Positions 20,866 to 63,248 of a stretch of DNA of 64,000 bases are shown one piece after another. The position numbers and the translations under genes were made by a program. The notes under the pieces were generated by a model that was not told the DNA's origin, did no database searches, and saw nothing but the letters and a program-made list of their open reading frames with translations. The DNA comes from a virus: IMG/VR virus record IMGVR_UViG_3300045963_000101, one strand, 5' to 3'. The number at the start of each line of letters is the position of its first letter. Within the stretch, counting starts at the first letter, position 1.

Positions 20866-21281
20866 TGGGCGGCGCAGTAGCATCTTCTGTTCCTGACAGT
20901 GGCATTATAGGTAACACAGTTGGTTCGGCTATGGCCCAAGCCAGTCCTATGGCGACTCCTCAGGCAGCACCATATCAGGCAAACGCAAATATGCCTTTGG
21001 CTTCACCACAATCAAACTACTATTCAAATCTTTTTGCAAGTGCTCCCGCTGGTAATGGTCCTGTGCCTCAGGCAGGAGGTAGTAAGGGTGGTGGTCAACC
21101 TGTATCATCTGCTCCTCTCGGACAATCATACACACCTATTCCTTTGGCAGCGGCTCCTGCAGCAACACCGGCGGCGACAACTGCAGCGTCTAATGCAGCG
21201 TTTGCTCAACAAATGGCACAATACAATGCTGCTCAAACAAAAGCAAGCCGTGAATGGAACGGTTCAGGAGGTCATCACTAA
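20865..21281 (+). CDS. Low-complexity A/P/Q-rich putative internal virion protein
   Basis: GGAGG RBS; TAATG coupling at both ends. Confidence 0.65.
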   Translation: MGGAVASSVPDSGIIGNTVGSAMAQASPMATPQAAPYQANANMPLASPQSNYYSNLFASAPAGNGPVPQAGGSKGGGQPVSSAPLGQSYTPIPLAAAPAATPAATTAASNAAFAQQMAQYNAAQTKASREWNGSGGHH

Positions 21282-21835
21282 TGGCATACGAAGATCCGTG
21301 GGCATGGATGGACCATCAAAAACCATCACAGACGGTACCTAATACGGTACAATATCAACCACAACCAGAAGCACAACCTGTTCAGCATATTCAGCAACAG
21401 CAAGATCCTCTTGTTTCAATGGTTGAGATGAGAGCAGCTAATAAGGGTCTTGATCAATTCGGTAATGCTGTTGATGCAGGTCTTAAATATAGGGCACCTT
21501 TAAGCGCGGGTACTGGTCTTACTCCTACTTCAGCTGTAGACTCCGGCGCAATGACCCTCACCGCACCAACCACCACAGGTCTTGTTACCTCTGGAGTGCC
21601 CGAAGGATATGCTCTTACAGGAGCACCAATAGGCTCAGGTCTTACTGCAGCTGCATCTACGGCGGCAGAAGCGGGAGCACCCTTAACAACAGCAGCTGGG
21701 ACAGCAACTACCGTAGCACCTATTACAGGTTTGGCCGCAGAAGGTGGCGCTGCAGACGCTATGATGGGTGCTATGGGTCCGATTGGTTGGGGTATGTTAG
21801 GTCTTATGGCAGCTAAACGATTGAAATTATTTTAA
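21281..21835 (+). CDS. Putative internal virion protein with hydrophobic C-terminal helix
   Basis: Start reassigned to ATG 21281 (TAATG overlap). MGAMGPIGWGMLGLMAA C-terminus is typical of ejection proteins. Confidence 0.65.
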   Translation: MAYEDPWAWMDHQKPSQTVPNTVQYQPQPEAQPVQHIQQQQDPLVSMVEMRAANKGLDQFGNAVDAGLKYRAPLSAGTGLTPTSAVDSGAMTLTAPTTTGLVTSGVPEGYALTGAPIGSGLTAAASTAAEAGAPLTTAAGTATTVAPITGLAAEGGAADAMMGAMGPIGWGMLGLMAAKRLKLF

Positions 21836-21844
21836 GGAGTCCAC

Positions 21845-24800
21845 ATGGGGCCACTATCCGCAAAGCAACATCGGGAATACCTGAAGTTCGCAGCTAAAGA
21901 AAAACGCGAAAGCGACAAACAAGAAAATGAAGAATCCCGTAAGGAAGAGCTTCATGAATTGAAACTCATGGCTGAAGCTAATAAAACAAATCAAGCTCTT
22001 GGTCATAAAGAAAATGAACACAAAGCCAAGATGTCTGAGCATGGTGGTCCTTTGAGTGCAGGTATGCTTGTGGGTAACGTTGGTATTGAACCAGTTAATC
22101 CTGATCCATTGACCTTTACGACTCGTCAAGGACATGGTAGTCAACTTACTCGCGGTCAGGGATACGCCAATGGTGGTCCTGTTATGGGTAATCCCCTCAG
22201 CGGACGTCCTCATGTAGGTGGTAAACCTCTTGGCCGTCACCCTGTACAACCAACCGATGTAGTACCCGCAATGTTAACTCCCGGAGAAGCTGTCATTCCT
22301 CGGGCCGCTGCTCAAGACCCTCGTAATAAGCCAATCATCAATCAAATGGTTCAGCAAGGACGGGCACAGCAAGGAATGCCTTCTCAGGGCTTTGCTAATG
22401 GCGGTATGGTTCCTCAAGGAAATCCTGTAGGTGCTTCTGGACTTACCGGACGCGTACAACTGCAGAATCAACTGGCTATAATGCCTAATGTTGGACCCAA
22501 GAAACACAAGATGGGTTTTGCAGATGGTACTACAGAAGTTCCTGTTACGGCTCCCGTTAATGAATCTTACATGGATAAACTTAAACGGGTATTTTCTCCG
22601 GCACCATCTATGGTAACACTACCTGAGTTTGGTGGTATGCTTGGACAAGCAAAAGAAGCTTTGAAGACCCGTACAAAAAAGATTGATGATAACATTGACA
22701 AGCAGGTTAATGGTTATGCGGATGGTGGGTATGTACAGGGCTATGCTGCTGGTGATCAATCGGTAAGCGCCGCTTCGGAAGCTGGCGATGTTGATTGGAA
22801 CGCTATCAATCAAAAGCTAAATGGAGGCGTTCCTCAAACTGCCTACACTCGCCCGCAATTGCAAACAGAAGTTCCCGTTGTTTACACTCAACCTCAAGGT
22901 GTTACCGTTACTGCCCCTTTAGCTAGTGGTCTCACAGAAGGTCAGACTATGTCCCGTGAGTCAGGTGGGAATGTTCTTGCTAAAAACCCTAAATCTACCG
23001 CTTTTGGGTTATACCAAATGACAGATGCGGCTTGGAAAGATGCAGAGGGTATTGATAAAACGTTGATTGGAGCTAATCATACAGACGCTTCCGTTCAAAA
23101 GAAAGCTTATGATGCTTATCGGGGCAATGCTTTACCAAATCAACTCAAGGCTTTAAATTATATTCCTGACAATGATAGTTTGGGTAAGGCATATATTGTT
23201 GGTGCATCCGGCTATGATAAAATTGCCAAGGCACCTGACAACACACCTCTTGACAAAATACTTCCTTCGTGGGTTATGGAGAAAAACCCTAACCTTGTAG
23301 GTAAAACAAGTACAGAGTTTTTATATGGTAAAGATCCATACAGTATTAAAACAGGTTCTCTTAAAGAAGCAACTTTAGCGGAACGCCGTTCTGGTATGAC
23401 TCATACAGGTAAGGGTGTTCCTCCAATTGATAATGTGATTCAGCAGGGAGCTAATGCAGCGGCGACAGAGCCTACTCCAGAGCTTGCAACAAACCTAGGT
23501 ATTCCTGATTCAGGTACCTTTGCATCGACTAAGCCAAACATGGACGGATTACCTTCAAACGAAGTACCACCTCCTGCAGGAAGTATTTCAGCAGCGGATC
23601 AGAATAACTTTGATTCTTTTATCTCCTCATTTACCAAGGACAATCAAGACGCTTTGCAAGACGCCGAAAAGAAAGCTGCAACAGTTCCTCCCGAACAAAA
23701 GAAATCTTTTTGGGAAGGTGTTTTGGGTGATTTGTATGGTGGTAAAGATAGTATTTTCAATCAAAAAGATCTTATTCGGTTTATTGGTGGGGCCGCTTTT
23801 CGTGCTGCTACCGGTGATAATATTAATCGTGCTCTTCGCGGTGCATCTATTGATACCATTAATACTTCAGACAAGCGTCATCAAACAGAGATTCAATTTG
23901 AAAATCAAAAAGATATTCAAATGGGTACTGCTAAAATGTGGGAAAACCGAGATGATGTTCGTATTAAAGCGGCTCAAGAAGGAGCTGCCGCAGCCGAACG
24001 TAAGGCTATGTACGGCAAGTATACTCCGGAATCTATTCATACATACAACGTAGCAACTAAGAGTGACCCTAACGGTGACTATATGCATTTGTTGGAGCCT
24101 GTTAAAAAGGGTTACAAAGGCATGTCTACTCCTGAGGATGTCACCTTTTCTAGTGGCCCTCTAAGAGGGGTATTGATTAAGAAAACTGTAGGGCAAGATG
24201 ACGAAGGTAACCATCAGATATTCTATAATGGAATTCCTGAAAGCGAATTTTATAAACGTTTATCTAGTGGCAAAGATGATTCCTTTAAGACAGGATTAAT
24301 GAATACACCAATGGTAACTTGGAATGACGACAAACACGGTCCGCAAGCTGTTGCTAAAAACTATAATGCATTGGCACCTACATGGTCCAAGTCAGCAGAA
24401 GAAGAATATTCGGAGATTGCAAAGGGTAGAGATGGTACAGGACATGCAGGTTTACCTACCCCAACAGCCTTCAGTAATTCTGCGATTTCCTTTTACAAGA
24501 GTCGTGGATATGACCCTACCGATGCAAATCAAAATTTGGCTATGCATGCTATTAATACTATTGCTTTGAAAGATATGGTTGCAGATAAGAAGCAAGGACG
24601 TACTGTAGAAGATCCCTCTGTATACTTAGCTAAATCAATGCTGATTGCTGACTCTGGAATTAATAAGGATGCTTTTTCTGTAGGTAATAAATCGATGAAC
24701 CCTGGCTTAATTAAAAACCTTGAAGATAAATTGAATGCTCAAATTATTAAAGAGAACAATGGTAAGCCATTAGAAGTTTCAGAGATTACTAAATTACGGT

Positions 24801-24925
24801 CAGACAAACTAAAGAAGATGTATTCAACATGGAGTAATCCAGATACAGCATCTCGTATGCCTTCTGGTAGTGCTACCACCTCAGGCTTCTATCAATACGT
24901 TGATCAACAATTAGGTTCAAAATAA
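21845..24925 (+). CDS. Ejection protein with lytic transglycosylase/lysozyme-like domain
   Basis: MSRESGGNVLAKNPKSTAFGLYQMTDAAW (catalytic E plus GLYQ motif, ~22950-23040); TDVVPAMLTPGEAVIP motif; AAGGAG RBS. Confidence 0.75.
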   Translation: MGPLSAKQHREYLKFAAKEKRESDKQENEESRKEELHELKLMAEANKTNQALGHKENEHKAKMSEHGGPLSAGMLVGNVGIEPVNPDPLTFTTRQGHGSQLTRGQGYANGGPVMGNPLSGRPHVGGKPLGRHPVQPTDVVPAMLTPGEAVIPRAAAQDPRNKPIINQMVQQGRAQQGMPSQGFANGGMVPQGNPVGASGLTGRVQLQNQLAIMPNVGPKKHKMGFADGTTEVPVTAPVNESYMDKLKRVFSPAPSMVTLPEFGGMLGQAKEALKTRTKKIDDNIDKQVNGYADGGYVQGYAAGDQSVSAASEAGDVDWNAINQKLNGGVPQTAYTRPQLQTEVPVVYTQPQGVTVTAPLASGLTEGQTMSRESGGNVLAKNPKSTAFGLYQMTDAAWKDAEGIDKTLIGANHTDASVQKKAYDAYRGNALPNQLKALNYIPDNDSLGKAYIVGASGYDKIAKAPDNTPLDKILPSWVMEKNPNLVGKTSTEFLYGKDPYSIKTGSLKEATLAERRSGMTHTGKGVPPIDNVIQQGANAAATEPTPELATNLGIPDSGTFASTKPNMDGLPSNEVPPPAGSISAADQNNFDSFISSFTKDNQDALQDAEKKAATVPPEQKKSFWEGVLGDLYGGKDSIFNQKDLIRFIGGAAFRAATGDNINRALRGASIDTINTSDKRHQTEIQFENQKDIQMGTAKMWENRDDVRIKAAQEGAAAAERKAMYGKYTPESIHTYNVATKSDPNGDYMHLLEPVKKGYKGMSTPEDVTFSSGPLRGVLIKKTVGQDDEGNHQIFYNGIPESEFYKRLSSGKDDSFKTGLMNTPMVTWNDDKHGPQAVAKNYNALAPTWSKSAEEEYSEIAKGRDGTGHAGLPTPTAFSNSAISFYKSRGYDPTDANQNLAMHAINTIALKDMVADKKQGRTVEDPSVYLAKSMLIADSGINKDAFSVGNKSMNPGLIKNLEDKLNAQIIKENNGKPLEVSEITKLRSDKLKKMYSTWSNPDTASRMPSGSATTSGFYQYVDQQLGSK

Positions 24926-24934
24926 AGGAAACTT

Positions 24935-27900
24935 ATGGTAACGGAAAAGGACATTGTTAATGATTCATTAACGGCACAAGGGGTACCGCCTCTTCCGTTG
25001 CCTCCTGAACAAAAATCCCTGATATTTAAAGACGGTGATACTGCAGTAGATACCACTACGGGTAAAACAATTCGTATTGGTAATCTCAATACTCTTGAAA
25101 CTCAAAAGACAGGTAGTAAAGCCTCTGACTTTAAAGCAGGTCAGTTAGGTGGAGATGCACAGACAGCCATTGGGGAGGCTGTAGCTCAAAGAGAAAATTT
25201 TACACAGCCAACATATCGAAACAGTAAAGATAAATACACCCGCGAGTTGGGTACATTGTCTAATCCTGATACAGGAGATAATTATTCAGATTATATGATA
25301 CGGAATAGGTTGGCAGACCCTTACATGGTGTCTCCAAACTCTTCTGCTATCGACCAACGATCAGCTACTGATCTTAATAATGCCAGAGACGCTGCTCAAT
25401 GGAAGCCAAAAAGCTATGCTCAAAACCTTCTTACTGCTCTTAACGATGTAAGAAATCTACAACCACTTACCGCCAAGGTATACGCACCTACTGCACAAAT
25501 GTATGGCGACAGCCTTGATGAAAGAGGTAACAGTAAGTACTATGCCGGACCCGCAACAATAGGTCCTGATGAAAACTATAGGGGTGAAGCTCGAAATCAG
25601 CTCACCGCTGGCCTAAACTTAGGTACCATGAGTATGAACCAAGGTGCTTGGAATGCTTTAGATATGCTAGGTTCTGTTACTGGCTCTAAGGGTATGCAAG
25701 AGTATGCTCAAGAAAAATCAGGCAATTACCGTTATGATTTAGAGAATACCCCAAGACTTCGTAATGCAGAGGCCTTTGATGAAAATGGCAAATGGAAGCT
25801 AGACTCATTCAGTAAAATGAGTGACTATGCAATTGGACTTGCCGCATCTTCTTTGCCGCAGATGGCACTGTCTGCAGGTTCCATGCTACTGTCTCCAATT
25901 ACTTTTGGAACTTCAAATGCTATACCTGCATTAGTATTCGCCGGACAAACTTGGGAGAACCAACCTAAGGACTCTAAGGATGTGGGATGGGCACTAGCTT
26001 CAGGTGTTACTCAGCAGGTGTTGGAGAATTTATCTTTAGGCCACATTAAAGGAAACATTCTTAAGAAACCAACCCAAGATAGGGTTATCGCAGAACTAGC
26101 TGCGAAAGGGTATTCGGAGTCAGCGGCAAAAGATCTTGTTGTTACTGAAACTCAGTTAGCACTTAAAGGTGTTTCTACGTGGACCAAGAGTGTAGCTATT
26201 AAAGAAGCTGAAGACGCAGCTAAAAAAGTTACAGCTAAATCTTTAGCTTACCACACTGGCCACGGTATTGTTTCAGAAGGTATTACTGAAGCATTACAAG
26301 AAGCAACTCAATACATAGGCGAACAAAGAGGGTTCAATCTTCCAGACAACCCTGAAGATATGTATGCTTTACAAAACCGGATTCTTAATGCCGGTGCTGG
26401 TGGTGCTGTCTTAGGTGGTGTGTTTAGTGGTGGGGGCCATGCGCTGGCCTCTACCCTAGGAAAGTCTGCTCAACGTTCATCCACAAGCGATCTTGATATC
26501 CGAAACCAATTAATGGGTGGTCTTAATTTTGTTCCACACAGTGAGGACGTAGCGAATGATGCCGTTAAAAACATGGCTAATGATGCATCGACTCTAAAAG
26601 AAATGGCTCAGAGTGAAACCGATAAGCGTAGGAATTCTGGCTTGGGTGGCGGTATTGTTGATTGGTTTAAAGAGAAGGGACTTAACAGTACTTGGCAGAA
26701 GTGGGCAACTACTATCAGAGGTAGTGACACTGGAGGGATGAACCTCAATGCTATTTGGACTTTGATTGGCGCGGCAAAAACTTTAAACGGTGGTTCTATT
26801 GAAGAACAACAATCAGGTGTCTTGCACAGACTGTCCAATGCATTTGGTTCTCCCGACGATATCCGTGCTGCTTTCGGTGGTAAGCTAAAGTTGTCTGAAA
26901 TTAAAAACATGATGTCTAATCCAGAGCTTAAAGAAGACTTTAGTAATCTCATGAAAATGATGGAATCCCATGGTCTTACGGCACAGCAAGCCTTTGAAAG
27001 AATGTCTGGTGTATTTAGAAGCCAGCCAGAGCACACCTCTGCTTTGGTGGGTATTGCTGATCGATTTAACTCTTTATTGAATGAACATGGAAAGATTACT
27101 GGTAGTCGTATGACTGCAGACGACTTCTTTAACATGGCACCACTCAACAAAAATGCTATTGCTCAAAACACAAGTGGCTTTATAACGAAGCTTAAAAATG
27201 TATTAGGTATGGATTCGGCTGCAGCAAATGAGTTAGCTAATCGGTATTTAAACTCTAATGATATAGTCACGTTGTTGGACCCTACAGATGACGCCCTTAG
27301 TGCTATGCTGGATGATTATGCCCGTACAAGTAAAGAATCAATTACTTCTTTGCGTACTAAGCTTAACCAAAATAAATCTGAGTTCAGTGAATTCTTACAC
27401 AATGACCCTTTGGAAAATGCTTATGCTCTTGCAGCTAAAGGTGCCGCCACGTTTGTACATCAGAATCTAATAGGTAAAGATGGATCCAAGTTAGCTGCCC
27501 TAATTAAACAAGCGGTTGCCACAAAAGAAATTGGTAGTGAACGTGCTTCTTTTATTGCAAAAGAATTAAAGGATTACCTTGATATGCGTAATGGGGTGTA
27601 TCATCCTATTACAAACAAGTATGCTAAAGGAGCACTTCAGTTGGTAAACTTCTTATCGACAGTAAGCTCACTACCTTTAGCAGCTATAAGCTCATTAACA
27701 GAGTTTTCTCAGGTATATCGGCATCTTAATACTGAGCAATCACTTAAGGCTACTAAAGCAATTCTAAAAGGTTTTGGTGCAGAGTTTGCTAATGCTATGC
27801 AGATTATTGGCGGAAAACCACAATCAGAATCAGTTAAGAATTACCGTAACAGTTTGTTTGAAGCGGGATTTCCTGTGGACGGATCGATGGCGCAGCGACA

Positions 27901-28756
27901 AGACATTGTTACTGATGCTTACCGTAAATGGACTGAAGGATTTTTTAAGATGACTGGTTTAACTTCTGTTACAAACGTAACAAGGTACGCCAAGCTCTCG
28001 ATAGGTGCGGATGCAATCAAGAGTTGGGTTGATGCTGTTAATGGTAATAATCCGCAAGCTAAACAAAATGCCATGGAGCATTTGATTCGTGTAGGGGTTG
28101 ATGCTGAGTGGATATCGTCAGCTGATATGAGTATTCCTGCTAACAAGGAAAGATTAGCTCATGAATTTAGTACAGGCACCCATAACTTTACTGTTGAGGC
28201 GGTAATCCATCCCACAAAAATGAACCGTCCTAAGTTTTATAGTGATCCTTATCTGCAGCTATTCACTCAATTTCAAGGGTATACCTCGGCTTTTACTGCG
28301 AATGTGCTACCGATGCTCCTTAAAGATCTTAGAAAGAGTGGATCCGCAGATCAAGTAAACGCAGCAGCAACTATTGCTATGATGTTTGCTCTCTCATACT
28401 TTGCTCTGTACCTAAAAGATATTATTAAGTATGGTGAATCCCCACCACCTTGGCTCAAAGAAGAGCAGAGGTTTCAAAGGTATATTGGGCAAGTTGGTTT
28501 GACAGGTACTGGTCAAAGAATTTGGGATGCGGTTAACCCTGTTATTCCACAATCAAACCAGAAACAATCTTTTGGAATGAGCGTATTGAATGGTGTTGTT
28601 GATCAGGCACCAGCGCTATCATATCTCTCAAAGGTTAATGATGCTATATCTGCATCTGACGGTAAACGTATTGAAAAAGCGGCGAGAACACTACCTATTG
28701 TAGGTACCTCGTCTTTGTTTGCAAAGAAATTGCAAAAAGAACTTGGAGATAATTAA
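24935..28756 (+). CDS. Large ejection protein with N-terminal SNase-like domain
   Basis: DGDT, IRIGNLNTLET and DKYTR align with thermonuclease motifs; Gly/Ala hydrophobic segments centrally; position in the ejection cluster. Confidence 0.7.
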   Translation: MVTEKDIVNDSLTAQGVPPLPLPPEQKSLIFKDGDTAVDTTTGKTIRIGNLNTLETQKTGSKASDFKAGQLGGDAQTAIGEAVAQRENFTQPTYRNSKDKYTRELGTLSNPDTGDNYSDYMIRNRLADPYMVSPNSSAIDQRSATDLNNARDAAQWKPKSYAQNLLTALNDVRNLQPLTAKVYAPTAQMYGDSLDERGNSKYYAGPATIGPDENYRGEARNQLTAGLNLGTMSMNQGAWNALDMLGSVTGSKGMQEYAQEKSGNYRYDLENTPRLRNAEAFDENGKWKLDSFSKMSDYAIGLAASSLPQMALSAGSMLLSPITFGTSNAIPALVFAGQTWENQPKDSKDVGWALASGVTQQVLENLSLGHIKGNILKKPTQDRVIAELAAKGYSESAAKDLVVTETQLALKGVSTWTKSVAIKEAEDAAKKVTAKSLAYHTGHGIVSEGITEALQEATQYIGEQRGFNLPDNPEDMYALQNRILNAGAGGAVLGGVFSGGGHALASTLGKSAQRSSTSDLDIRNQLMGGLNFVPHSEDVANDAVKNMANDASTLKEMAQSETDKRRNSGLGGGIVDWFKEKGLNSTWQKWATTIRGSDTGGMNLNAIWTLIGAAKTLNGGSIEEQQSGVLHRLSNAFGSPDDIRAAFGGKLKLSEIKNMMSNPELKEDFSNLMKMMESHGLTAQQAFERMSGVFRSQPEHTSALVGIADRFNSLLNEHGKITGSRMTADDFFNMAPLNKNAIAQNTSGFITKLKNVLGMDSAAANELANRYLNSNDIVTLLDPTDDALSAMLDDYARTSKESITSLRTKLNQNKSEFSEFLHNDPLENAYALAAKGAATFVHQNLIGKDGSKLAALIKQAVATKEIGSERASFIAKELKDYLDMRNGVYHPITNKYAKGALQLVNFLSTVSSLPLAAISSLTEFSQVYRHLNTEQSLKATKAILKGFGAEFANAMQIIGGKPQSESVKNYRNSLFEAGFPVDGSMAQRQDIVTDAYRKWTEGFFKMTGLTSVTNVTRYAKLSIGADAIKSWVDAVNGNNPQAKQNAMEHLIRVGVDAEWISSADMSIPANKERLAHEFSTGTHNFTVEAVIHPTKMNRPKFYSDPYLQLFTQFQGYTSAFTANVLPMLLKDLRKSGSADQVNAAATIAMMFALSYFALYLKDIIKYGESPPPWLKEEQRFQRYIGQVGLTGTGQRIWDAVNPVIPQSNQKQSFGMSVLNGVVDQAPALSYLSKVNDAISASDGKRIEKAARTLPIVGTSSLFAKKLQKELGDN

Positions 28757-31700
28757 TTGATTAATTCGAATATTAAAACTAATCAGGGGCCGTTGGTTCC
28801 TGCTTTAGATCCTGCTAAGATACTGCCTAATTCGTTGACACAACAAGGTCTCCCTGTTCCTACTTCTGCTCTTGATTATGCAAGGCAAAATGCAACAGCG
28901 GATATTCCTCAGAATACGCAGTCTACTGGTAGTGCTAATGCAGGTCCAGTACCAATGCCCTCGCAGGATCAAGCTCCTGATAACCGTCATGCATGGTATT
29001 CTGATCCAACAGATCGTTGGGAAGGTGTCCATGTCAATGATGAGTCTATGCTTGCACCTCAGGAGGAAGGCCCAACGCAGATTGGCTCACCACAGGTGGA
29101 TATGATGGGCAAAAACGGTATGCCTCTTACCTATGATCAAGCTCAACAACTTCAAAATAAAGAAGTAGAAGATCAATATCAACGGGCTAAAGGTATTAAT
29201 TACGATTATACTACCGAAGCTCAAATGGAGGAAGCATTCCCACAGAAGACTATGTTGGGTGCGCCTATTTCTAATATCAGTCAGCGAGAGCAACTAGTTA
29301 GCTTAGCCAAGGATTTAGGTCAAAGCTTGATTGACACTTCGGTTCAGACAAATCGAGATGGGTTTGGTCCGGCCAAGAGTATGTCAGCAATGACTCAAAT
29401 TACTTCTTCGTTTGGTATCACACCAGTCCAAGCGGCTAATAAGCTGGCAGTGGCAACAAGCCTAATGCTACCTGTATTTAAGGGCGCTACTGATATGGAG
29501 AACGGTGTCATTCAAGATAAAGATACCTTAGACTTGATGTCGTATCTTACTGACTTTGATGGTGCTCCTCTCAATACTGAAGTGTCAGTTATGTCGGGTG
29601 GGCTCTTAGCAGAACCTACATTTAGTATGCTTGCTTCTGCCTTTACTAAGCTTAATGAAAGAGAACATGTAAATGGAGCAGGACAACCCGTACGTGTAGC
29701 ATACAATGGTATTCCTGCAGAAGTTCTTGGCCCTATTTTAGCTGATTCCCTTGTTGATAATGGTGTATTAGTTAAACTAAAAGCAGATGACGGTGTTACT
29801 GATCTCTATCGGGTTAGCCCTATGAGGGGTAATGAAATATACAAAGCTTCTAGGATGGTTGCACAAGTAGCTCTTGAAGCTGGTCGTGGTCGTGCTCAGA
29901 AAGTACCTGTTACTTCTGAAGGTCGTTACTCAGGTGCTGCAAATAGTTTCAGAGAAAAAGAGATATATCGTCCCGGAGCAGAACCTTTTTATGAGAAACA
30001 AGAGCTGGCTCGAGTCTTTGGTAGTGTAGGTATAAATGTTTCTGGTGTACGTATTCACCTTGCAAACCTTTTGCTGAATAATGCTTTGGGTGAACTTCAT
30101 AAGGGAGCTACTCAAGTAAGTACTGAGACAAATCCTGCTCGACAGTTTGGTCAGGCTACTGAAGGATTACCTTCCACAATGAGCTTGTTTAATCTTTCTA
30201 CGAAAGACAATCACGATGCTATCTTAGCTAAGACAACTACGGCTATTAAGCAAATGAATTATATGGGTCAGCATCTGGTTGCGAACACCCCGTTGTACGC
30301 TCCGGTTAAATTTGACCCTACTTCAATGCGAGCTATTAATGATACTGATGATTTGAATTACCAGTCAAGTAAGCTTGTACGTGGTTTGATTAGCCCTCAC
30401 CGGACTCCATTAAATGTTTCTAAAACAAATCTTCATATGCAGCCTATATCGGTTGAATCTGCTAAGGCGTTCTATGAAGATCTTAACCGTAAGATCATTG
30501 CAGGTACTGCAGGACCGGTAACAGACTATGAAGCAGAGCTAGGGTTTCTTGCAGCATTAGGTAACAACCTTGATGTTCATAAAACAATTGGTCTTAAAGA
30601 TGGTACTACTATGCCGTGGTCTAAAATGGCTTTGGTTACTCCAGACTTCTTGCTTAAAGCTGCTCGTAAAGGAGCGATCCTTGCTTCTATTGCACCTCAA
30701 TCAAGTAAAGAGGTTGCAAGTAAGGCTTTAGATATGACAACGTTTGCTCAGACACTTACGCCGGAGCAACAACAAGTTCTTACCGAGTTTATTGAAGAAG
30801 CCAGTGATAAAAACTGGGGCTTTAAGCTTGCCGCTTATTTGGATGCTGCTAATTATCTTACATCTAAAAAGAATGGTACACCTTTTACTCCTAGTTTGGT
30901 GACTGAGATTGATCAGAACTCAGCAGGACGGGCGTTTTCTGCGCTGGATTCAGGGGATGAGACTGTTCTTGATCGTACGGGCTTTTTCTACCCTACAGTT
31001 GGGAGCTTACATTACAATACTAAACCTTTAGGATCCCCAAGAACTCTTTATGCTAGGTATGCTGAGAATGAGTCGGTTGATTTGGCTATATCTGATGACA
31101 AGCCAGATCTCAAGAATGCTTGGAAAGAAATATTCAAGGTTCTTCAACAGCCAGAGAATGTTAAAATGATGGATAGGTTTGGCAAGCCACCATTGATGAC
31201 TACAGATTATGGTATGCCTGTTAATTATCATTTAGGGGAATCAAAAGCTTTTTTAAGTAAGTATCCGCAGTTTGAAGCTATGCTAGCGCCTTTCTACCCT
31301 AAGATTACTGGGATAGTTCAAGATATGAATGAGATTCATACTCAAACATTGTTGAAAGCAACTAGGGCTTTGCAGCGGGATACCCCTAAAAAGTTGGTTT
31401 TCCTTTTACAGTCTGTAGGTCGTCTTCCTAGGTTCAAAGGTTTTTATGGAGAGCAAGTGCCGATTGGTGCTTTTATGTCTGTACCTAATGGGGAATACTC
31501 AGAAGTGACCGATAAGAATGGTAACACTCGAAAGATAGAGCATACACGTCGTAGAGTAGACCCGATGGCAAAGTCTAAGGCTAAAAGTGTTGAATACATT
31601 AATGACGAAGGTGATTGGGCCACAAAGCCTTTTGATCCTGCTCCGGGATCTTCGGCATCAAACTCCGTTGGCCCGTTCATGGGTCAATACCGCGAGTCTA

Positions 31701-32374
31701 TTGTTACGAACGGTACTGCGTATACAATTAACAGCAAGAAGAAACCTTCTGACATGCTGTTTGTACTATCTGTGTTTGATAATCTACTGCTTGACAGTCG
31801 TAGTTATCTGCGTGGTGTACTCACTGCTAACAACGTGGTACTACCTAAGGCTGCAGAGTTTGATTTGCCAAAAGCTATTGCCGATGATTTTACTACTCAA
31901 GTAAAAGCAGCAATGGAAGGTATTATCAATGGTCCTGCGCAAGTGGATATTGGTAAGGGCAGTCAGTACAAAGGTCTACTGCTTAATATTGATAACAGGC
32001 TGGATAAGATTCAGAAAGAGCGTCAGAATAAGGCAGAAAGAGAAACAGAAGCTGAGCGTAAGATCAGAGCTAATGCAGCTCAATTCGAACAATCAATCCT
32101 TAAAGAAGGAAGTGGCTACGTAAAGCCAGATGATCGTGGAGATGAAGTAGTTGTTTCGAAAGGACAATTACGTAAGATGTTTAACGATTTGATTTTATAC
32201 GAGTTGTTCTATCTTGATCGCAATACAGGCACATACAATACAGAGGCTACTAAAAGAGACGGACATCAAACTGTCCTTGCTCGATGGGTCGCTGAAAGTA
32301 AAAATTCTCGAATGAGATTCTTGCCTATGATTAAGAAGAATGCTTCTGAAGCTAAAAACAGTTTCATGGACTAG
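28757..32374 (+). CDS. Putative virion-associated single-subunit RNA polymerase (N4 vRNAP-like catalytic core)
   Basis: LNYQSSKLVRGLI; motif A EIDQNSAG; motif B KPPLMTTDYG; motif C SVFDN, in the correct order and spacing. TTG start with GGAG 8 nt upstream; last gene of the structural arm. Confidence 0.8.
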   Translation: MINSNIKTNQGPLVPALDPAKILPNSLTQQGLPVPTSALDYARQNATADIPQNTQSTGSANAGPVPMPSQDQAPDNRHAWYSDPTDRWEGVHVNDESMLAPQEEGPTQIGSPQVDMMGKNGMPLTYDQAQQLQNKEVEDQYQRAKGINYDYTTEAQMEEAFPQKTMLGAPISNISQREQLVSLAKDLGQSLIDTSVQTNRDGFGPAKSMSAMTQITSSFGITPVQAANKLAVATSLMLPVFKGATDMENGVIQDKDTLDLMSYLTDFDGAPLNTEVSVMSGGLLAEPTFSMLASAFTKLNEREHVNGAGQPVRVAYNGIPAEVLGPILADSLVDNGVLVKLKADDGVTDLYRVSPMRGNEIYKASRMVAQVALEAGRGRAQKVPVTSEGRYSGAANSFREKEIYRPGAEPFYEKQELARVFGSVGINVSGVRIHLANLLLNNALGELHKGATQVSTETNPARQFGQATEGLPSTMSLFNLSTKDNHDAILAKTTTAIKQMNYMGQHLVANTPLYAPVKFDPTSMRAINDTDDLNYQSSKLVRGLISPHRTPLNVSKTNLHMQPISVESAKAFYEDLNRKIIAGTAGPVTDYEAELGFLAALGNNLDVHKTIGLKDGTTMPWSKMALVTPDFLLKAARKGAILASIAPQSSKEVASKALDMTTFAQTLTPEQQQVLTEFIEEASDKNWGFKLAAYLDAANYLTSKKNGTPFTPSLVTEIDQNSAGRAFSALDSGDETVLDRTGFFYPTVGSLHYNTKPLGSPRTLYARYAENESVDLAISDDKPDLKNAWKEIFKVLQQPENVKMMDRFGKPPLMTTDYGMPVNYHLGESKAFLSKYPQFEAMLAPFYPKITGIVQDMNEIHTQTLLKATRALQRDTPKKLVFLLQSVGRLPRFKGFYGEQVPIGAFMSVPNGEYSEVTDKNGNTRKIEHTRRRVDPMAKSKAKSVEYINDEGDWATKPFDPAPGSSASNSVGPFMGQYRESIVTNGTAYTINSKKKPSDMLFVLSVFDNLLLDSRSYLRGVLTANNVVLPKAAEFDLPKAIADDFTTQVKAAMEGIINGPAQVDIGKGSQYKGLLLNIDNRLDKIQKERQNKAERETEAERKIRANAAQFEQSILKEGSGYVKPDDRGDEVVVSKGQLRKMFNDLILYELFYLDRNTGTYNTEATKRDGHQTVLARWVAESKNSRMRFLPMIKKNASEAKNSFMD

Positions 32375-36295: not shown

Positions 36296-36310
36296 TATTA
36301 GGTTCCAGCT
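36296..36310 (-). promoter_or_regulatory. Putative phage-RNAP promoter, class II motif AGCTGGAACCTAATA
   Basis: One of 5 co-oriented copies; directly after the RNAP stop and upstream of nrdJ. Confidence 0.65.
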
Positions 36311-38522
36311 AACAGAAGAAGTACTTACTTTCGTTAACTTCCTTAAGGTTAAGAGAACCAGTAGCTGGTTTAGGGAAGTCGAAAGTATCTTTATGTAGCA
36401 TCAAGGTATCCATCAGGATATCAAAGAAGTTGTCTACATCGTATTGCGCTATGAACGTCATCTTAGTTACGTCTTGGAGGAAGTCTACTTCTGAAGCATG
36501 AACACTGAAGCTATCATGCACAGCAGCAAAGGAACCATTAAAGGCCACAATTGTGTTAGCCATATGAGCAGCATCATAGCTGTGTACAACGTTAGGAGAT
36601 ATGCCGCTAGCAAAACTTCTGCGGCAAGGTACTTTTTCTCCAGTCTCTTGATTGAGAACATCAACTTTGAGTACATGCATTACTCTCCCATCTTTGTTTC
36701 CGTCGATACCTTTGATGGTACCTCGTTGTTTACGCTCGTGCTGTAGAAAGGCTTTATAGACGACAGGAAAGCCGCTTGGAGTATGCCAAGATAAAGAGTT
36801 ACGACCGTTATTAAGCTCATGTTCAGCAATCTTTTGTAAGTATTTAGTTGTTTGAAGTGGTCCGGCGCAGACAGTATTGATTGCTTCAATAAGGTTCTTT
36901 GCCAGTTCACCACACATATTCTCGTTGATACTGTACTTGACAGTATACCCTTCCATATGGCAGTCATCGTACATGTTCTTTGCAATACGATTACGTCCGG
37001 CTGAATAAGCTCGAGTCATAGACCCCCGTTTAGCAATACCCTTACGGATATGCTTCATGGGGATTTTCTTTTCGGAGAACCATTCAGGCATCAGAGTGAT
37101 AAGCTCTTTTGCTACAGCCACATAGAAGTCCTTTTGAATAGGCGTGTTAGTGAGAGAAACAAGTTCACCTGCCTGAGCATCCTTGCTCATAGCTGCCAGA
37201 TGTTGCCAGCCGTTATTGCTACCATCAATAGGTACTGGAAAGCCACTCAAGCAGGGGATACCTGCCTTTTTACAATCATAGTACTTTGTAATCTCCATAC
37301 ATACAGCGAGCCAGCTATAAGGTTTTTCCGCGTAGTCCATGATCAGCTTACGGGATGAGACATCCTTGACCATATCCATATTGTGGATGACCCATTTGTA
37401 ACGATCATCGAGTGTCATCTTATCCACGGATATAGTGTCAAGACCTTCTTTCTGCAGATAGCTTATGTAGTCTGTCTCAAAGTACTTTACCAGACGAAGA
37501 TCTTCAATAGTGAAGGATCGATTAAAGCAACTGGCTGCATGAATACATAGCCAGTAGAAGCCACGCTGATCAACCACCTTCTTATTATGAAACAAGAACA
37601 GACTACGGGCCAAGTCACTACCTTGGAATTCCAGAAAGGATTCTGCATAGTATATCCTGCCACGATAATCACAGCTGACCTCCTGATAGAATGGATAACC
37701 CTTTGACTGAACTAATTCAGCCTTGCGTACTACCTGAACATACTCAAAGTATTTACTTACCAAACGCTGCAACTTAGGATCTTTCTTTCCGGCGAATGCA
37801 GTACCGTCTGTATGGGTAAGTTTCTTGGGCAGATGCAGGTTCTCATGGTGGATATTCCATTGATGAATTTCACCGTCGGCATCTACCAAGGACAGTACTT
37901 CAGGTGGTGGGTTGCTTTGGATAGCAGTTAGCAATGGGTTGTTCAGTGCCCACGGTTGCTGACGAAGAGTCTCAAGAGCCTTTACAAATGGTCTGTCGAG
38001 ATAATCATAGAAGAGTTTTCCGTTGGTCCAACCCTTGATGAAAGGTTCTTTCGTAACTGAGCTAAATAATCCTGTGATTGGTAGAGGAGGTTCAAAGACG
38101 GTACCAATAAGTGTGGGCTTAAGATCACATGTCTGATTGACGATCCGTACCATGTAGGGAGCTTTGATCCCATTGTATTCCCTGAAGATATCAATTAGAC
38201 CGTCCTGAAGAAACGTTTCGAGTAGAAGATCACCGATGGCAAGAGTAGATTTAATGTCTGATTCATCGCCACCAATAGCCCTAACCACCCGTTTGCCAAT
38301 GAGGTCACTAGCAAAGGTAAGCTTGACGGTTGCAGTAAATTTTGCATTCTTGTTTCGGATACAGTATCGGAGTAAAGTATCCCAAGCTTCGTTAATAAAT
38401 CTTTCAAGTTCATACTCCCATGTTGGATAGTGTGCTAACAAACGAGCACCTTCGTTGTAGATCTTATCTGAGTTGACTACTACTTTCTCAACTCGAGCTG
38501 TGAGATAGTCTAGTGGGTTCAT
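36309..38522 (-). CDS. T7/T3-type single-subunit DNA-directed RNA polymerase
   Basis: CDYRGRIYY, FQGSDLARSL, PIDGSNNGWQH (A), KRGSMTRAY (B), PNVVHSYDAAH, VHDSF (C). Confidence 0.95.
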   Translation of the reverse strand: MNPLDYLTARVEKVVVNSDKIYNEGARLLAHYPTWEYELERFINEAWDTLLRYCIRNKNAKFTATVKLTFASDLIGKRVVRAIGGDESDIKSTLAIGDLLLETFLQDGLIDIFREYNGIKAPYMVRIVNQTCDLKPTLIGTVFEPPLPITGLFSSVTKEPFIKGWTNGKLFYDYLDRPFVKALETLRQQPWALNNPLLTAIQSNPPPEVLSLVDADGEIHQWNIHHENLHLPKKLTHTDGTAFAGKKDPKLQRLVSKYFEYVQVVRKAELVQSKGYPFYQEVSCDYRGRIYYAESFLEFQGSDLARSLFLFHNKKVVDQRGFYWLCIHAASCFNRSFTIEDLRLVKYFETDYISYLQKEGLDTISVDKMTLDDRYKWVIHNMDMVKDVSSRKLIMDYAEKPYSWLAVCMEITKYYDCKKAGIPCLSGFPVPIDGSNNGWQHLAAMSKDAQAGELVSLTNTPIQKDFYVAVAKELITLMPEWFSEKKIPMKHIRKGIAKRGSMTRAYSAGRNRIAKNMYDDCHMEGYTVKYSINENMCGELAKNLIEAINTVCAGPLQTTKYLQKIAEHELNNGRNSLSWHTPSGFPVVYKAFLQHERKQRGTIKGIDGNKDGRVMHVLKVDVLNQETGEKVPCRRSFASGISPNVVHSYDAAHMANTIVAFNGSFAAVHDSFSVHASEVDFLQDVTKMTFIAQYDVDNFFDILMDTLMLHKDTFDFPKPATGSLNLKEVNESKYFFC

Positions 38523-56426: not shown

Positions 56427-56441
56427 TATTAGGTACCGGCT
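56427..56441 (-). promoter_or_regulatory. Putative phage-RNAP promoter, class II motif AGCCGGTACCTAATA(GGGA)
   Basis: Intergenic exact copy pointing toward ssb and the replication genes; followed by GGGA as in T7-type initiation sites. Confidence 0.7.
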
Positions 56442-59926: not shown

Positions 59927-60043
59927 TTAGTAGATGATTACGATGAAGTCTTGTGCTGAATATCTGTTCAGATCACTGGGACCGGCATAGAGAGGGAGTT
60001 TGTCGATGATATCTCCGGAAGCACGAGAGATGATGTAGTACAT
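59927..60043 (-). CDS. Small hypothetical protein (38 aa)
   Basis: TAAGGA RBS; downstream of the class I repeat. Confidence 0.45.
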   Translation of the reverse strand: MYYIISRASGDIIDKLPLYAGPSDLNRYSAQDFIVIIY

Positions 60044-60101
60044 AGGATTTCCTTATGGAATGAGACGTTGATGAGATAACATGGAACTTACCCCATGTAA
60101 G

Positions 60102-60127
60102 GGTCTCTCTGTGAACCTGAGAAAGGT
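60102..60127 (-). promoter_or_regulatory. Class I 26-bp early repeat, copy 1 (putative hairpin promoter)
   Basis: GGTCTCTCTGTGAACCTGAGAAAGGT; 24/26 identical to 60495-60520; intergenic. Confidence 0.65.
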
Positions 60128-60194
60128 AGCATTGACAAGCTGATCACCCGCAACGACATCTGCCAAATATCGTCCTTCGCCGGAATCTCCGTGA

Positions 60195-60437
60195 TCAGTC
60201 TGGATAGTACAGTCCATCGTCGTAATCACTGCACATATCCTGCGCGATGATCTCTGCGCGTTCATCTATGCAGTCTTCCTTTGTGAGGAATGCTGGCGAG
60301 ATGTAGCAGTTGGTATCTCTATTGTAGACTACCCAAGGACGTCCTGCGAAAATATCCTGCGTGTGATACCATTCAAAGTTCTTCGCAATGACTTCTTCGC
60401 GGTGTACCACCACTAGGTGGGCATATGGTGAGTCCAT
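60195..60437 (-). CDS. Early hypothetical protein
   Basis: Start reassigned to ATG 60437 (CAGGAG RBS). Confidence 0.65.
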   Translation of the reverse strand: MDSPYAHLVVVHREEVIAKNFEWYHTQDIFAGRPWVVYNRDTNCYISPAFLTKEDCIDERAEIIAQDMCSDYDDGLYYPD

Positions 60438-60494
60438 GATGGATCTCCTGTGAAGGTTAATGGAATGTTCTGCACAGTACATACCCTGTGCTAT

Positions 60495-60520
60495 GGTCTC
60501 TCTGTAGACCTGAGAAAGGT
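60495..60520 (-). promoter_or_regulatory. Class I 26-bp early repeat, copy 2 (putative hairpin promoter)
   Basis: GGTCTCTCTGTAGACCTGAGAAAGGT; intergenic, upstream of the 60437 gene. Confidence 0.65.
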
Positions 60521-60532
60521 GTCTTGCAGAGC

Positions 60533-60916
60533 TTATCCCTTGCAGATGTCGTAGAACCACTTGTCAGGGCTGAAACCACCAGCTGCCATGAAGCAGACAA
60601 CAGTCTCTGAGTCCTTAGCTGCCTTGAGTGTAGCATACAACTCGTTAGCATACTGAGTGCTTGGCAAGCGATCGACCTTGCACACCCTTACATTACCGTC
60701 TTCTCCGATCACACGGATCTCACGCTTTGCAATGTCCTTCTGAACCAAGAGAATGGCTTGTGGCTCACTATACTTGGTTGCTGCCTGAGGAGCACGGCAA
60801 GAGAACACAACTTCTTTCTTATCAGTGAAGTTTTGTTCAGCTTGCTTGCCATTAGCTGCAGCAAGGATCTCACCCATTTGGGCGAACGAGAGAGTGTTAG
60901 CGATAGAACGTGCCAT
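60533..60916 (-). CDS. Early hypothetical protein
   Basis: TAGGAG RBS; 127 aa. Confidence 0.8.
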   Translation of the reverse strand: MARSIANTLSFAQMGEILAAANGKQAEQNFTDKKEVVFSCRAPQAATKYSEPQAILLVQKDIAKREIRVIGEDGNVRVCKVDRLPSTQYANELYATLKAAKDSETVVCFMAAGGFSPDKWFYDICKG

Positions 60917-61063
60917 GAGATTTCTCCTAGTTGGCGTTTAGTAGTAACGATACCAGCGTTAGAATGCAAAGACGCACTCTGATATGCCCAATCGAGCATA
61001 TCGGAATGTTGTCTCTTCAGGTCGTATTGGCAACATACTTGCGGTATGTCGCACAGACATTTA

Positions 61064-61297: not shown

Positions 61298-61528
61298 GAT
61301 GTATCCTAAAAGAACACAGCAAAGGTGCTGCCAGTACGACCCGAAGCGGGTGCCGCCCACCAACCAGCGAGCGCCCCAAGAAAGACAGGGGGCACCCAAA
61401 ACAAACAAGGCGAACCCAAATAACACAAAAGATTTTTCCACACACAAAGAGAAGGGCACCCCAAAGAAATTCTCCCAAAAATTCATTTTCAAAAATTATT
61501 ATCTATGAATTTTCAGGGTATACTGCCC

Positions 61529-61543
61529 AGCCGGTACCTACTA
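61529..61543 (+). promoter_or_regulatory. Putative late promoter, class II motif AGCCGGTACCTACTA
   Basis: Intergenic exact copy about 50 nt upstream of terL, at the head of the structural arm. Confidence 0.72.
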
Positions 61544-61595
61544 AGAAATAGATATTTCATTACGGTAGATTACTAACGTAACCTATAAGGACACA

Positions 61596-63248
61596 ATGGC
61601 AACAAAACCAACTAAGGGTGCTAATCTACAGAAGCTGGAAGCACTCAGAGAAATAAAGCGGCGAGAACGTCTCGAGGTCTACAAAACGGACTTCCAAACA
61701 TTCGCCAAGGAACAAATCAAGATACTCCCTAAGGACACTTCAAAAGGCTTTCTGCCATTCGAATTCAATGCAGCACAGGTCATTGCGAATGATGCCATAG
61801 AAAAGCAGCTTAATGAAACAGGAAAAGTAAGAGTAATCATTCTGAAGGCCCGTCAAATGGGTCTCTCAACATACACCACCGCAAGGGTCTTCTGGAAGAG
61901 TTATTTCAATGCACATAACAAGTCAGTGGTCATGGCTCATGATTCAGCTACATCGGACACTCTGTTCACGATGTCTCGAAATACTATTGACAATATGCCT
62001 GAGGATTATCGTCCCAAGTTTAAAAAATCTAATGCCAAAGAGATTCTCTTTGAGCACAACGATTCAGGATACCGGCTGTATACTGCGGGTGCGCCTGAAG
62101 CTGGACGCGGAACTACGCCTACGATTGCACACCTGTCTGAGGTTGCCTTCTGGACGCATGATGTTAAGATATTGGCCGGACTATTCCAAGGAATCTCCCA
62201 AGCTGACGGTACCGAGGTCATACTTGAGTCCACAGCTAATGGTATTGGTAACGAATTTCACCGCTTATGGCAGGGTGCTGTAGCAGGAGAGAATGAATAT
62301 CTGCCTATCTTTGTACCATGGTTTCTTATGCCGGAATACCAGAGAAAGGTTCCTGACGGGTTTGAACTAACCACAGAAGAAGAGATTATACTGAAGAAGT
62401 TTAATCTCAGCAATGAGCAGATGTACTGGAGGAGACTCAAGATAGCGGAGTCCGGAGCAGACAAATTCAAGCAAGAATACCCATCAAGTCCTGAGGAAGC
62501 TTTTATTGCTTCAGGATCTAACGTGTTTAACCTTGGTAAGCTCAACACTCTGATACCCCAACCAATACTGGCAAAGAGAGAGTTTAACTTTGAGAGTTGT
62601 CTCTTCGAGGATGCTCGTCAGGGTTCTATTGAGATATTTAAATATCCGACCTTTGATGATTCTTTTGCTATAGGAGCAGACGTTGCTCTTGGTGTCGGTA
62701 AGGATTCTTCAGCTGCAGTCGTAATGAATTCCAAGAGAGAAGTCTGTGCGGTATACCGTAATAACCTTATTGATCCTTCTCAGTTCGGAGATTTTTTGTT
62801 TTACCTTGGCAGGTACTACAACAATGCTCTTCTGGCTGTAGAGTCTAACAGTATGGGTATTGCTACTCTGAACAGACTTACACAAATGAAATATGTGAAT
62901 CTTTACTATCAAACAAAGATAGCTAATGTTTCAAAAGAAGACGGTATGAGGGTAGGTTGGAAGACCACTGCTCAGACCAAACCTGCAATCATTGGATTCC
63001 TTAAGAATGCCATTGAGCAAGATGACGTATGGATTCCTTCGATAGTTGTAATCAGGGAACTCATGAATTATGTTGCAGATGAGTCAGGTAAGACGAATGC
63101 TCAGTTTGGCTATAATGACGATACAGTCATTGCTCTTGCTATTGCACTCGAAGTGATCCGTACCCACGGTGATCGACTAACTAACACTAACGTACCCTTC
63201 TCGCAGAAGCAGGGTGGGTTTCAAACAGTTGAAACAAACTGGTTATAA
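61596..63248 (+). CDS. terL: Terminase large subunit
   Basis: ILKARQMGLST (Walker A), HLSEVAFW (Walker B), ESTANG, IGADVALG and DDTVIALAIA nuclease motifs. Confidence 0.96.
   Translation: MATKPTKGANLQKLEALREIKRRERLEVYKTDFQTFAKEQIKILPKDTSKGFLPFEFNAAQVIANDAIEKQLNETGKVRVIILKARQMGLSTYTTARVFWKSYFNAHNKSVVMAHDSATSDTLFTMSRNTIDNMPEDYRPKFKKSNAKEILFEHNDSGYRLYTAGAPEAGRGTTPTIAHLSEVAFWTHDVKILAGLFQGISQADGTEVILESTANGIGNEFHRLWQGAVAGENEYLPIFVPWFLMPEYQRKVPDGFELTTEEEIILKKFNLSNEQMYWRRLKIAESGADKFKQEYPSSPEEAFIASGSNVFNLGKLNTLIPQPILAKREFNFESCLFEDARQGSIEIFKYPTFDDSFAIGADVALGVGKDSSAAVVMNSKREVCAVYRNNLIDPSQFGDFLFYLGRYYNNALLAVESNSMGIATLNRLTQMKYVNLYYQTKIANVSKEDGMRVGWKTTAQTKPAIIGFLKNAIEQDDVWIPSIVVIRELMNYVADESGKTNAQFGYNDDTVIALAIALEVIRTHGDRLTNTNVPFSQKQGGFQTVETNWL

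Follow-up and report, generated by a model that had tools for sequence, protein, structure and literature searches.

A conserved, covarying cassette between phage early genes as a possible pseudoknot element of the early mRNA

The locus described here raises the question of whether a short repeat between the early genes of an uncultured phage serves as a DNA hairpin promoter for an injected RNA polymerase (RNAP), as in phage N4, or acts as a folded element of the early mRNA. The window, meaning the whole 64-kb stretch of DNA that was analysed, belongs to a phage. TerL is encoded at 61596-63248, structural genes occupy the + strand at 1-32374, and the minus-strand arm encodes a DNA polymerase, a primase-helicase, a T7-like RNAP and a ribonucleotide reductase. 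The nearest isolate is Roseobacter phage CRP-7 (TerL 58% and RNAP 31% identical), and its early region shows no synteny with the window. As a separate observation, a 1353-aa ORF (11341-15402) contains 66-nt in-frame tandem repeats at 12700-14033, with Gly-rich repeats at 14190-14795.

The repeat, its cassette and its relatives

A preliminary description of this DNA had placed two copies of a 26-nt repeat at 60102-60127 (copy 1, GGTCTCTCTGTGAACCTGAGAAAGGT) and 60495-60520 (copy 2, GGTCTCTCTGTAGACCTGAGAAAGGT) on the + strand, 393 nt apart, and both positions are exact to the nucleotide. With up to three mismatches allowed, these are the only matches in the 64-kb window (2 vs 0.00 expected from 100 shuffles), and no third copy appeared in the window even with the filters off. 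The sequence also confirms that the copies differ only at two spacer positions (60113-60114 and 60506-60507). Likewise, both copies fall in intergenic stretches of the minus-strand early arm, copy 1 being flanked by a stop at 60195 and an ATG at 60043, and copy 2 by a stop at 60533 and an ATG at 60437. A 70-aa ORF (60053-60265) overlaps copy 1, and it is unlike coding sequence because conservation there forms a block without 3-base periodicity. On the minus strand, the order is gene 1 (61297-61064), gene 2, copy 2, gene 3, copy 1 and ORF 4, which leads a packed series of small minus-strand ORFans down to about 56450.

Similarity between the two copies reaches 42 nt, and with the downstream hairpin each unit measures about 57-62 nt, the 26-nt repeat being half of this cassette. 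On the + strand, the cassette consists of hairpin A, a 0-3-nt linker, the core GGTCTCNC, a spacer and helix S1 with the loop GNGAA (Table 1). Among relatives, hairpin A has a 4-7-bp stem and the 8-nt loop WACNTACC, and S1 has 2-5 bp. Outside the cassette, a short block ATGGAATG (mRNA sense CAUUCCAU) is shared by both units at 60059-60066 and 60460-60467, between hairpin A and the ribosome-binding site, and a variant of it occurs in the related locus L001.

Table 1. Positions of the cassette parts, neighbouring early genes, RNA polymerases and first minus-arm class II motif in the window
Feature	Position	Strand	Description
S1 helix, copy 1	60115..60127	-	ACCT/AGGT stem; 5-nt loop, GAGAA on + and UUCUC in mRNA
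Core, copy 1	60102..60112	-	invariant GGTCTCTCTGT; mRNA sense ACAGAGAGACC
Hairpin A, copy 1	60079..60098	-	6-bp ACATGG/CCATGT; 8-nt loop AACTTACC, mRNA sense GGUAAGUU
S1 helix, copy 2	60508..60520	-	GAGAA loop
Core, copy 2	60495..60505	-	invariant GGTCTCTCTGT
Hairpin A, copy 2	60472..60491	-	GCACAG/CTGTGC stem, loop TACATACC
Early ORFan gene 2 (127 aa)	60533..60916	-	stop 12 nt ahead of the copy 2 S1 helix
Early ORFan gene 3 (80 aa)	60195..60437	-	ATG 34 nt past hairpin A of copy 2
Early ORF 4 (38 aa)	59927..60043	-	first gene past copy 1; ATG 35 nt past hairpin A
First minus-arm class II motif (AGCCGGTACCTAATA)	56427..56441	-	end of the cassette-headed early operon
T7-like RNAP (737 aa, 13 Cys)	36309..38522	-	Pfam RNA_pol, 1.7e-54
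Second single-subunit RNAP (1205 aa)	28757..32374	+	last gene of the cysteine-free ejection-protein block

Relatives were collected by a TerL scan (31 loci), by motif scans of IMG/VR and JGI metagenomes and by a covariance model. In total, 53 sequence-distinct cassettes with 21 distinct S1 arm combinations were parsed, all in related uncultured phage contigs. One loose IMG/VR pattern scan gave only noise among the matches listed, and early gene 2, used as an anchor for further loci, led to no relatives. The complete 64-kb relative G001 contains exactly two cassettes and G002 one. Every cassette of the window, G001 and G002 runs in the early-gene sense, with an identical core and S1 loop. Tandem units 38 nt apart occur in seven loci (L174, L178 and L186, for example). 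The cassette is absent from the lineages of G003-G005, where other intergenic hairpins stand in its place, such as GAGCCC-gaa/aaa-GGGCTC in L018. A cassette-like match before TerL in L010/L011, weak (13 bits) and in the opposite orientation, was judged to be low-complexity noise.

The genes beside the cassette are non-homologous across phages, and the cassette precedes the gene-2 homologue in L045 and follows gene 2 here and in L032. It behaves like a mobile regulatory module. Among the non-coding elements of the early region it is the most conserved one, and it alone is repeated in the early arm. The Rfam 15 covariance models gave no match at the cassette up to E = 10, and there were zero gathering-level matches in the window and zero in three related loci.

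Placement relative to genes is equally regular. In 49 of the 53 instances, an ORF in the same sense starts within 160 nt of hairpin A, and in most of these 49 the start codon lies 21-36 nt beyond the end of hairpin A (mode 31-35), so that both orientation and distance to the next start codon are strictly kept. Each cassette has at least one gene upstream of it, and the scan for a promoter of these genes was negative. The upstream stop codon lies 2-12 nt before S1 in 24 of 42 instances, with no terminator in between. Because these stops adjoin S1, transcripts of the upstream gene must enter the cassette. Together with gene orientation, this indicates that the cassette is probably transcribed as part of the mRNA.

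Helices, covariation and the folding strand

The 4-bp stem of the preliminary description, here S1, holds and is under selection, with compensatory changes in all four pairs. Among relatives, its arms read ACCT/AGGT, CTCT/AGAG, CCCA/TGGG, ACTC/GAGT and others. The L001 ortholog of copy 2 has CTCT/AGAG against ACCT/AGGT, corresponding to two compensatory pairs in a conserved island between diverged genes. Counted as pairs without phylogenetic correction, both sides changed in 4/4 pairs of S1 (12 sequences), and covariation was found in 4/6 pairs of hairpin A. When both were scored together (8 sequences), 98.7% of the cells were paired and both-sided change occurred in 7/10 pairs, a level that 0/500 shuffles reached, while slid controls were just 19-47% paired. 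S1 alone is thermodynamically marginal, and minimum free energy folds pick it only sometimes.

Folding further showed that the invariant S1 loop is complementary to the invariant core. The core TCNC pairs with the loop GNGA to form a helix, S2, which in copy 1 joins TCTC (60106-60109) to GAGA (60119-60122). Core position 7 (c7) is the only variable core position and loop position 2 (l2) the only variable loop position, and across the 53 instances they read T/A in 43, A/T in 9 and C/G in 1, with 0 violations. In 12 sequences S2 was 100% paired, which 5/500 shuffles reached. S1 and S2 are interleaved and therefore constitute an H-type pseudoknot, with the two covarying helices and the loop-to-downstream-strand pairing that characterise this fold. 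In addition, the core GGT (60102-60104 in copy 1) is complementary to the ACC that ends the loop of hairpin A. This candidate helix, S3, has no covariation support because both partners are invariant. S2 and the core are nearly invariant in sequence while the stems of S1 and hairpin A vary freely, and the core is therefore read as sequence too.

Which strand folds was judged from mismatches, loop lengths and spacing. The 21 S1 arm combinations contain 17 non-Watson-Crick cells, 9 of which are of the wobble type; on the + strand, 8 of these are C.A/A.C, equivalent to G.U in the mRNA, vs 1 G.T. One case is a flipped wobble, GGAC/GCCC against GCCC/GAGC. G.U is thus tolerated and A.C avoided in the mRNA sense, as in a folding RNA, although this asymmetry reflects few independent events (perhaps 4-5). 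A constant fifth pair, U.G in the mRNA sense, is formed by the base adjoining S2. With S1 and S2 formed, the connecting loops measure 1 nt and 2-9 nt in the mRNA sense and 5-9 nt and 1 nt in the + sense. Standard H-type pseudoknots have a short first loop and a longer last loop, a geometry that only the mRNA-sense lengths appear to suit. Finally, across the 53 instances the loop centre and the invariant CTCNC block are separated by 7, 8, 9, 11, 12, 13 or 15 nt, a spread that is usual in a pseudoknot loop and would be abnormal in a promoter ruler. Combined, mismatch type, loop lengths and spacing are suggestive, rather than proof, of a fold in the mRNA (minus) sense.

A neighbouring conserved 9-bp hairpin at 60978-61005 (+), between genes 1 and 2 and preceded by GCACTCT, shows both kinds of mismatch, with a G.T wobble on the + strand here and A.C in L001. 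It recurs three times in L006/L007, where GATATGC/GCATATC is replaced by the compensatory GGTATGC/GCATACC. Duplicated early genes in the same two loci (L006 7306-7358 and 7846-7898; L007 5120-5202 and 5528-5610) each carry, about 25 nt ahead of the start codon, another hairpin, GGATCG-AAGATA/AAGAGC-CGATCC. The L010 early region has six tandem 22-nt repeats (TATACGAGACTCTGTCGAGTTC) at 7052-7203 that, with further dispersed copies, look like iterons.

A possible role in the early mRNA

Our preferred reading, to which we give a probability of about 0.5, is that the cassette is an mRNA-sense pseudoknot in the leader or intercistronic region of the early operon, about 32 nt before the next start codon. 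In the RNA, read 5' to 3', S1 would come first. The UCNC of its loop U-UCNC would then pair with GNGA of the invariant GNGAGACC, 2-9 nt downstream, to give S2 and complete the H-type pseudoknot. The ACC of GNGAGACC could in turn pair with the first three bases of GGUAWGUW, the invariant loop of hairpin A, and the start codon of the next early gene would follow about 32 nt beyond this hairpin. Such a fold may provide a compact module, nuclease-resistant or recognised by a protein, which would mark or shield the next cistron on its 5' side or adjust how well that cistron is translated. In this role the cassette would correspond in position to the structured sites between the cistrons of the T7 early transcript.

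The leader of gene 32 in phages T4 and T2 carries an H-type autoregulatory pseudoknot, and the cassette resembles it in the pairing of a loop with a downstream strand, the 1-nt first loop, the longer last loop and the position in a phage gene leader. In contrast to the gene 32 element, the second hairpin of the cassette may form a second pseudoknot with the same central strand, and S2 is near-invariant. With the RNase III sites of the T7 early transcript, the cassette shares a structured, conserved element after one early cistron and tens of nucleotides before the next. However, it has no long double-stranded stem, and its helices of 4+4+3+5-6 bp would have to stack to come near a substrate. 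A simple RNase III site was rejected for this absence of a long duplex.

The covariation of the helices, the mRNA-sense mismatches and loop lengths, the variable linker and the placement favour a leader, as does the constancy of the core and S1 loop among phages whose injected-type polymerases are only 32-34% identical. Against it, the genes upstream of the cassette yielded no promoter, S1 alone is of marginal stability, few events underlie the wobble asymmetry, no Rfam family matches, and the proposed function is an analogy. The core is moreover near-invariant in sequence, and GAGAGACC resembles the purine-rich start of a T7-type transcript. The minus strand from 61297 to 56441 contains no class II motif (see below), and an injected-type RNAP needs a promoter somewhere.

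Promoter readings, other alternatives and significance

The class II motif AGCYGGWACCTANTA occurs in 5 exact and 2 one-mismatch copies (0.22 expected) and has no hairpin, which bears out the earlier distinction between it and the cassette. The 737-aa T7-like RNAP is its probable reader. On the minus strand, no class II motif was found between the ATG of the first early gene (61297) and 56441. Like T7-type duplex promoters, including class II, the cassette is conserved, has a set orientation, lies upstream of genes and contains a purine-rich, start-like GAGAGA. Unlike these promoters, the sequence upstream of its core varies and keeps only its complementarity, and the spacing varies as well. 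Instead of the roughly 17-23 bp that a T7-type promoter conserves at a fixed register to +1, the cassette has 21 arm combinations and variable spacing, which a duplex-reading RNAP would not tolerate.

The second single-subunit RNAP of the window, 1205 aa long, was characterised through its family and its predicted fold. A full HMMER search recovered 87 cluster representatives of about 1100-1400 aa, and their alignment contains the motif A/B/C-like invariant residues D659, K750, Y758, G759 and D948. The AlphaFold model (pLDDT 87, pTM 0.88) was compared with the PDB using Foldseek, and all top folds were single-subunit RNAPs (N4 mini-vRNAP, T7 and mitochondrial, E ~1e-11); the matches include the N4 mini-vRNAP promoter complexes 3C3L and 3C2P (E ~2e-11). 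By sequence, either singly or as a 55-sequence profile, the protein showed no link to solved RNAPs in the PDB, and it had no homologue among 50,697 phage records. Five consecutive ORFs at 20152-32374 (3934 residues), the last of which encodes this RNAP, contain no cysteine at all, vs 1.8-2.3% cysteine in the replication enzymes. On the strength of the model and this composition, the protein is an RNAP of N4/T7 fold that is apparently injected. The phage thus has an injected-type RNAP, and the promoter question is therefore a real one, with the 1205-aa RNAP as the candidate reader of the cassette.

Members of this family (vRNAP) are encoded in the related records G001-G005, those of G003-G005 being found by profile search. 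Identity to the window is 34% in G001 and 32% in G002 for the vRNAP, vs 97% and about 73% for the T7-like RNAP. When window 28757-32374 is set against G001:21547-24537, the vRNAP-family proteins are 34% identical in genomes whose TerL and T7-like RNAP are 97% identical. The ejection block seems to have been exchanged as one module.

The preliminary description had read the repeat as an N4-type early promoter. According to this explanation, the + strand is the template, S1 is extruded as a DNA hairpin with a purine loop and is bound by the injected 1205-aa RNAP, and transcription starts at the CTCTC block to give the RNA (A)GAGAGACC, which carries hairpin A as a 5' stem-loop. N4 promoters are conserved from -17 to +1, with a 5-7-bp stem and a C-GRA-G triloop (PMC4496689). 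The polymerase recognises the -11 purine, -10G, -8G, +1C and the duplex-to-single-strand junction at -5/-4, the loop centre lies 11 nt from +1, and native double-stranded DNA is inactive because single-stranded access is needed (PMC4496689). In phage LUZ7, early promoters have stems of at least 4 bp and a G start 13-14 nt from the hairpin centre (PMC9163698). The two N4 promoters, read from EF056009 on the template 5'-3', are GGACAACATGTCC-ATAA-GTTGC-gaa-GCAAC (P1) and GGATGCATTACTTCATCC-AA-AAGAAGC-gga-GCTTCTT (P2); in both, a downstream inverted repeat abuts +1, and the GGA loop of P2 equals the RNA 5' end.

Several observations fit this explanation. The second RNAP has an N4 mini-vRNAP-like predicted fold, it closes the 3934-residue cysteine-free block, and its family recurs in G001-G005. 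The cassette is the sole repeated non-coding element of an early arm that has no minus-strand class II motif from 61297 to 56441, and like the N4 and LUZ7 promoters it heads early genes in few copies and in their orientation (PMC4496689; PMC9163698). As in P1 and P2, the proposed template strand carries an inverted repeat with a G-started purine loop, a short spacer and a C-rich template block in the same order, a second inverted repeat lies just past the start, the loop resembles the RNA 5' end (GGA/GGA in P2), and an RNAP of N4/T7 fold is encoded in the ejection block. The canonical copies also match the geometry of N4: counted from a loop centre at -11, the stem base comes to lie at -5 and the upstream edge at -17, and a template C is present at 12 nt. 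The mapped LUZ7 promoters make a 4-bp stem acceptable, since their stems have at least 4 bp (PMC9163698).

However, the details diverge from N4. The loop is a 5-nt GNGAA closed by T:A, A:T or C:G rather than the 3-nt G-R-A loop closed by C:G, and the stem has 2-5 bp vs 5-7 bp in N4. With the CTCNC block as a proxy for the start, the loop-centre-to-+1 distance is not fixed across the 53 instances, and the hairpin-core distance varies from 7 to 15 nt. In many lineages, C.A mismatches or stems of just 2-3 bp on the template strand would make a preformed DNA hairpin too weak, and the mismatches are of the wobble type in the mRNA sense. The loop pairs with the start-like block, and nothing in the N4 mechanism calls for this loop-core covariation. 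The core and S1 loop remain identical despite vRNAPs of 32-34% identity, and the at least one gene that is always upstream of the cassette would need another promoter. Furthermore, the 1205-aa RNAP is one third the size of gp50 and has no sequence-search link to it. What stands of the earlier proposal is a selected stem, strand specificity, a position at the head of the early operon and a second RNAP; the template-strand N4 reading is not supported, given the loop, the spacing, the loop-core pairing, the 8 to 1 excess of C.A mismatches and the divergent vRNAPs. We regard an N4-type promoter as a doubtful but serious candidate.

Across the cassette-bearing loci, no conserved N4-like C-GRA-G hairpin family was found upstream of the first early gene. 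Individual hairpins of this kind do occur. In the window, a 5-bp GC-rich hairpin with a purine triloop, ACCCG-aag-CGGGT, lies on the template strand at 61339-61351 (+), 42 nt upstream of the first early gene, and is followed by a second hairpin at 61316-61331 in a layout like that of N4 P1. This region is 100% identical in L001 and so offers no covariation evidence, and other lineages have no conserved family there. The long non-coding divergent region at 61300-61595 contains repeated GGGCACCC(C)AAA blocks (61390, 61454) and blocks such as GCGAACCCAAA and CACACACAAAGA that are common to G002; genome ends, an origin or a promoter are possibilities for it. In L018 (TerL 69%), two template-strand GAGCCC-gaa/aaa-GGGCTC hairpins of the N4-like C-GAA-G type stand at 9134-9160 and 9531-9560, one of them after GGACTCTC at the same 12-nt distance, and the record of this lineage, G004, also encodes a vRNAP-family protein.

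Two departures from the N4 pattern would keep a promoter function. It is unlikely, though conceivable, that the cassette is the promoter of the compact injected RNAP with a new architecture, in which a pseudoknot ties the promoter hairpin loop to the first bases transcribed, either on the non-template strand or in the nascent RNA, and thereby offers a single-stranded start site. We consider very unlikely a hybrid in which transcription starts within GAGAGACC while the selected structure lies on the non-template strand or involves the nascent RNA; the loop TTCNC of the hairpin would pair with non-template positions +1 to +4 or with the RNA 5' end, thereby keeping the start single-stranded for a non-melting polymerase. 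This hybrid would explain at once why the core is purine-rich and start-like, why S2 covaries, why the wobbles are biased to the minus sense and why the linker is flexible, and it agrees with the single-stranded access that N4 vRNAP needs (PMC4496689). However, about 25 bp would have to unwind around stems of 2-5 bp, and there is no fixed distance from a recognition element to the start. To our knowledge, such an architecture has no precedent.

It is also highly improbable that the cassette is an autonomous structured RNA, namely a new small self-cleaving ribozyme, a riboswitch-like aptamer or a processed decoy that mimics a type III antitoxin repeat. A compact, pseudoknot-rich fold with invariant nucleotides and freely covarying stems would suit such an RNA, as would the lack of an Rfam match and the tandem copies 38 nt apart in seven loci; type III antitoxin RNAs consist of tandem direct repeats of about 34-45 nt beside an endoribonuclease toxin gene. 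In one relative, L174, a hammerhead-like element whose core is intact also lies about 700 nt from the cassettes in the same sense. Against this, nearly all conserved bases are paired, which leaves little for a catalytic or ligand pocket, no cleavage site was identified, and new ribozyme or riboswitch classes have a low prior probability. The L174 element itself (683-737, +), upstream of the tandem cassettes, is hammerhead type III-like with the core CUGAUGAG...CGAAAC and scores 28.7 bits, below the gathering score.

A non-promoter DNA site, whether an operator bound by a dimeric regulator or a site for replication or a primase, hardly seems probable: GGTC, which never varies on the + strand, corresponds to the recognition core of T7-type primases, the phage has a T7-like primase-helicase, and the window has two close intergenic copies, but operator half-sites would be conserved in sequence while the cassette arms change freely and stay complementary, and a replication site has no need of strict orientation and start-codon distance. 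The same variable but complementary arms excluded a palindromic operator for a dimeric protein. A sigma-70 promoter was rejected because the hexamer scan was empty at the cassette and candidate -10 boxes had no invariant A2/T6, with a register that shifts between copies; an intrinsic terminator because neither hairpin is followed by a U-run in either sense; and a stimulator of stop-codon readthrough or frameshifting because the stop lies anywhere between 2 and 140 nt away and readthrough at copy 2 would add just 13 codons.

In summary, these phages form an uncultured freshwater and wetland clade with two single-subunit RNAPs, one of them apparently injected, and the way in which their early genes are switched on would show whether a compact version of the N4 strategy exists outside Schitoviridae. 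The cassette has 53 variants, lies outside Rfam and has a structure defined by covariation. The c7/l2 and stem covariations specify mutants that would be informative under either reading. If the cassette is a promoter, it would offer a minimal oligonucleotide substrate for a new RNAP, and a promoter of new architecture would show the N4 strategy at work, under other rules of recognition, in an unrelated and unstudied phage clade. If the RNA leader holds true, the cassette would represent a new pseudoknot motif that controls early expression in phages.
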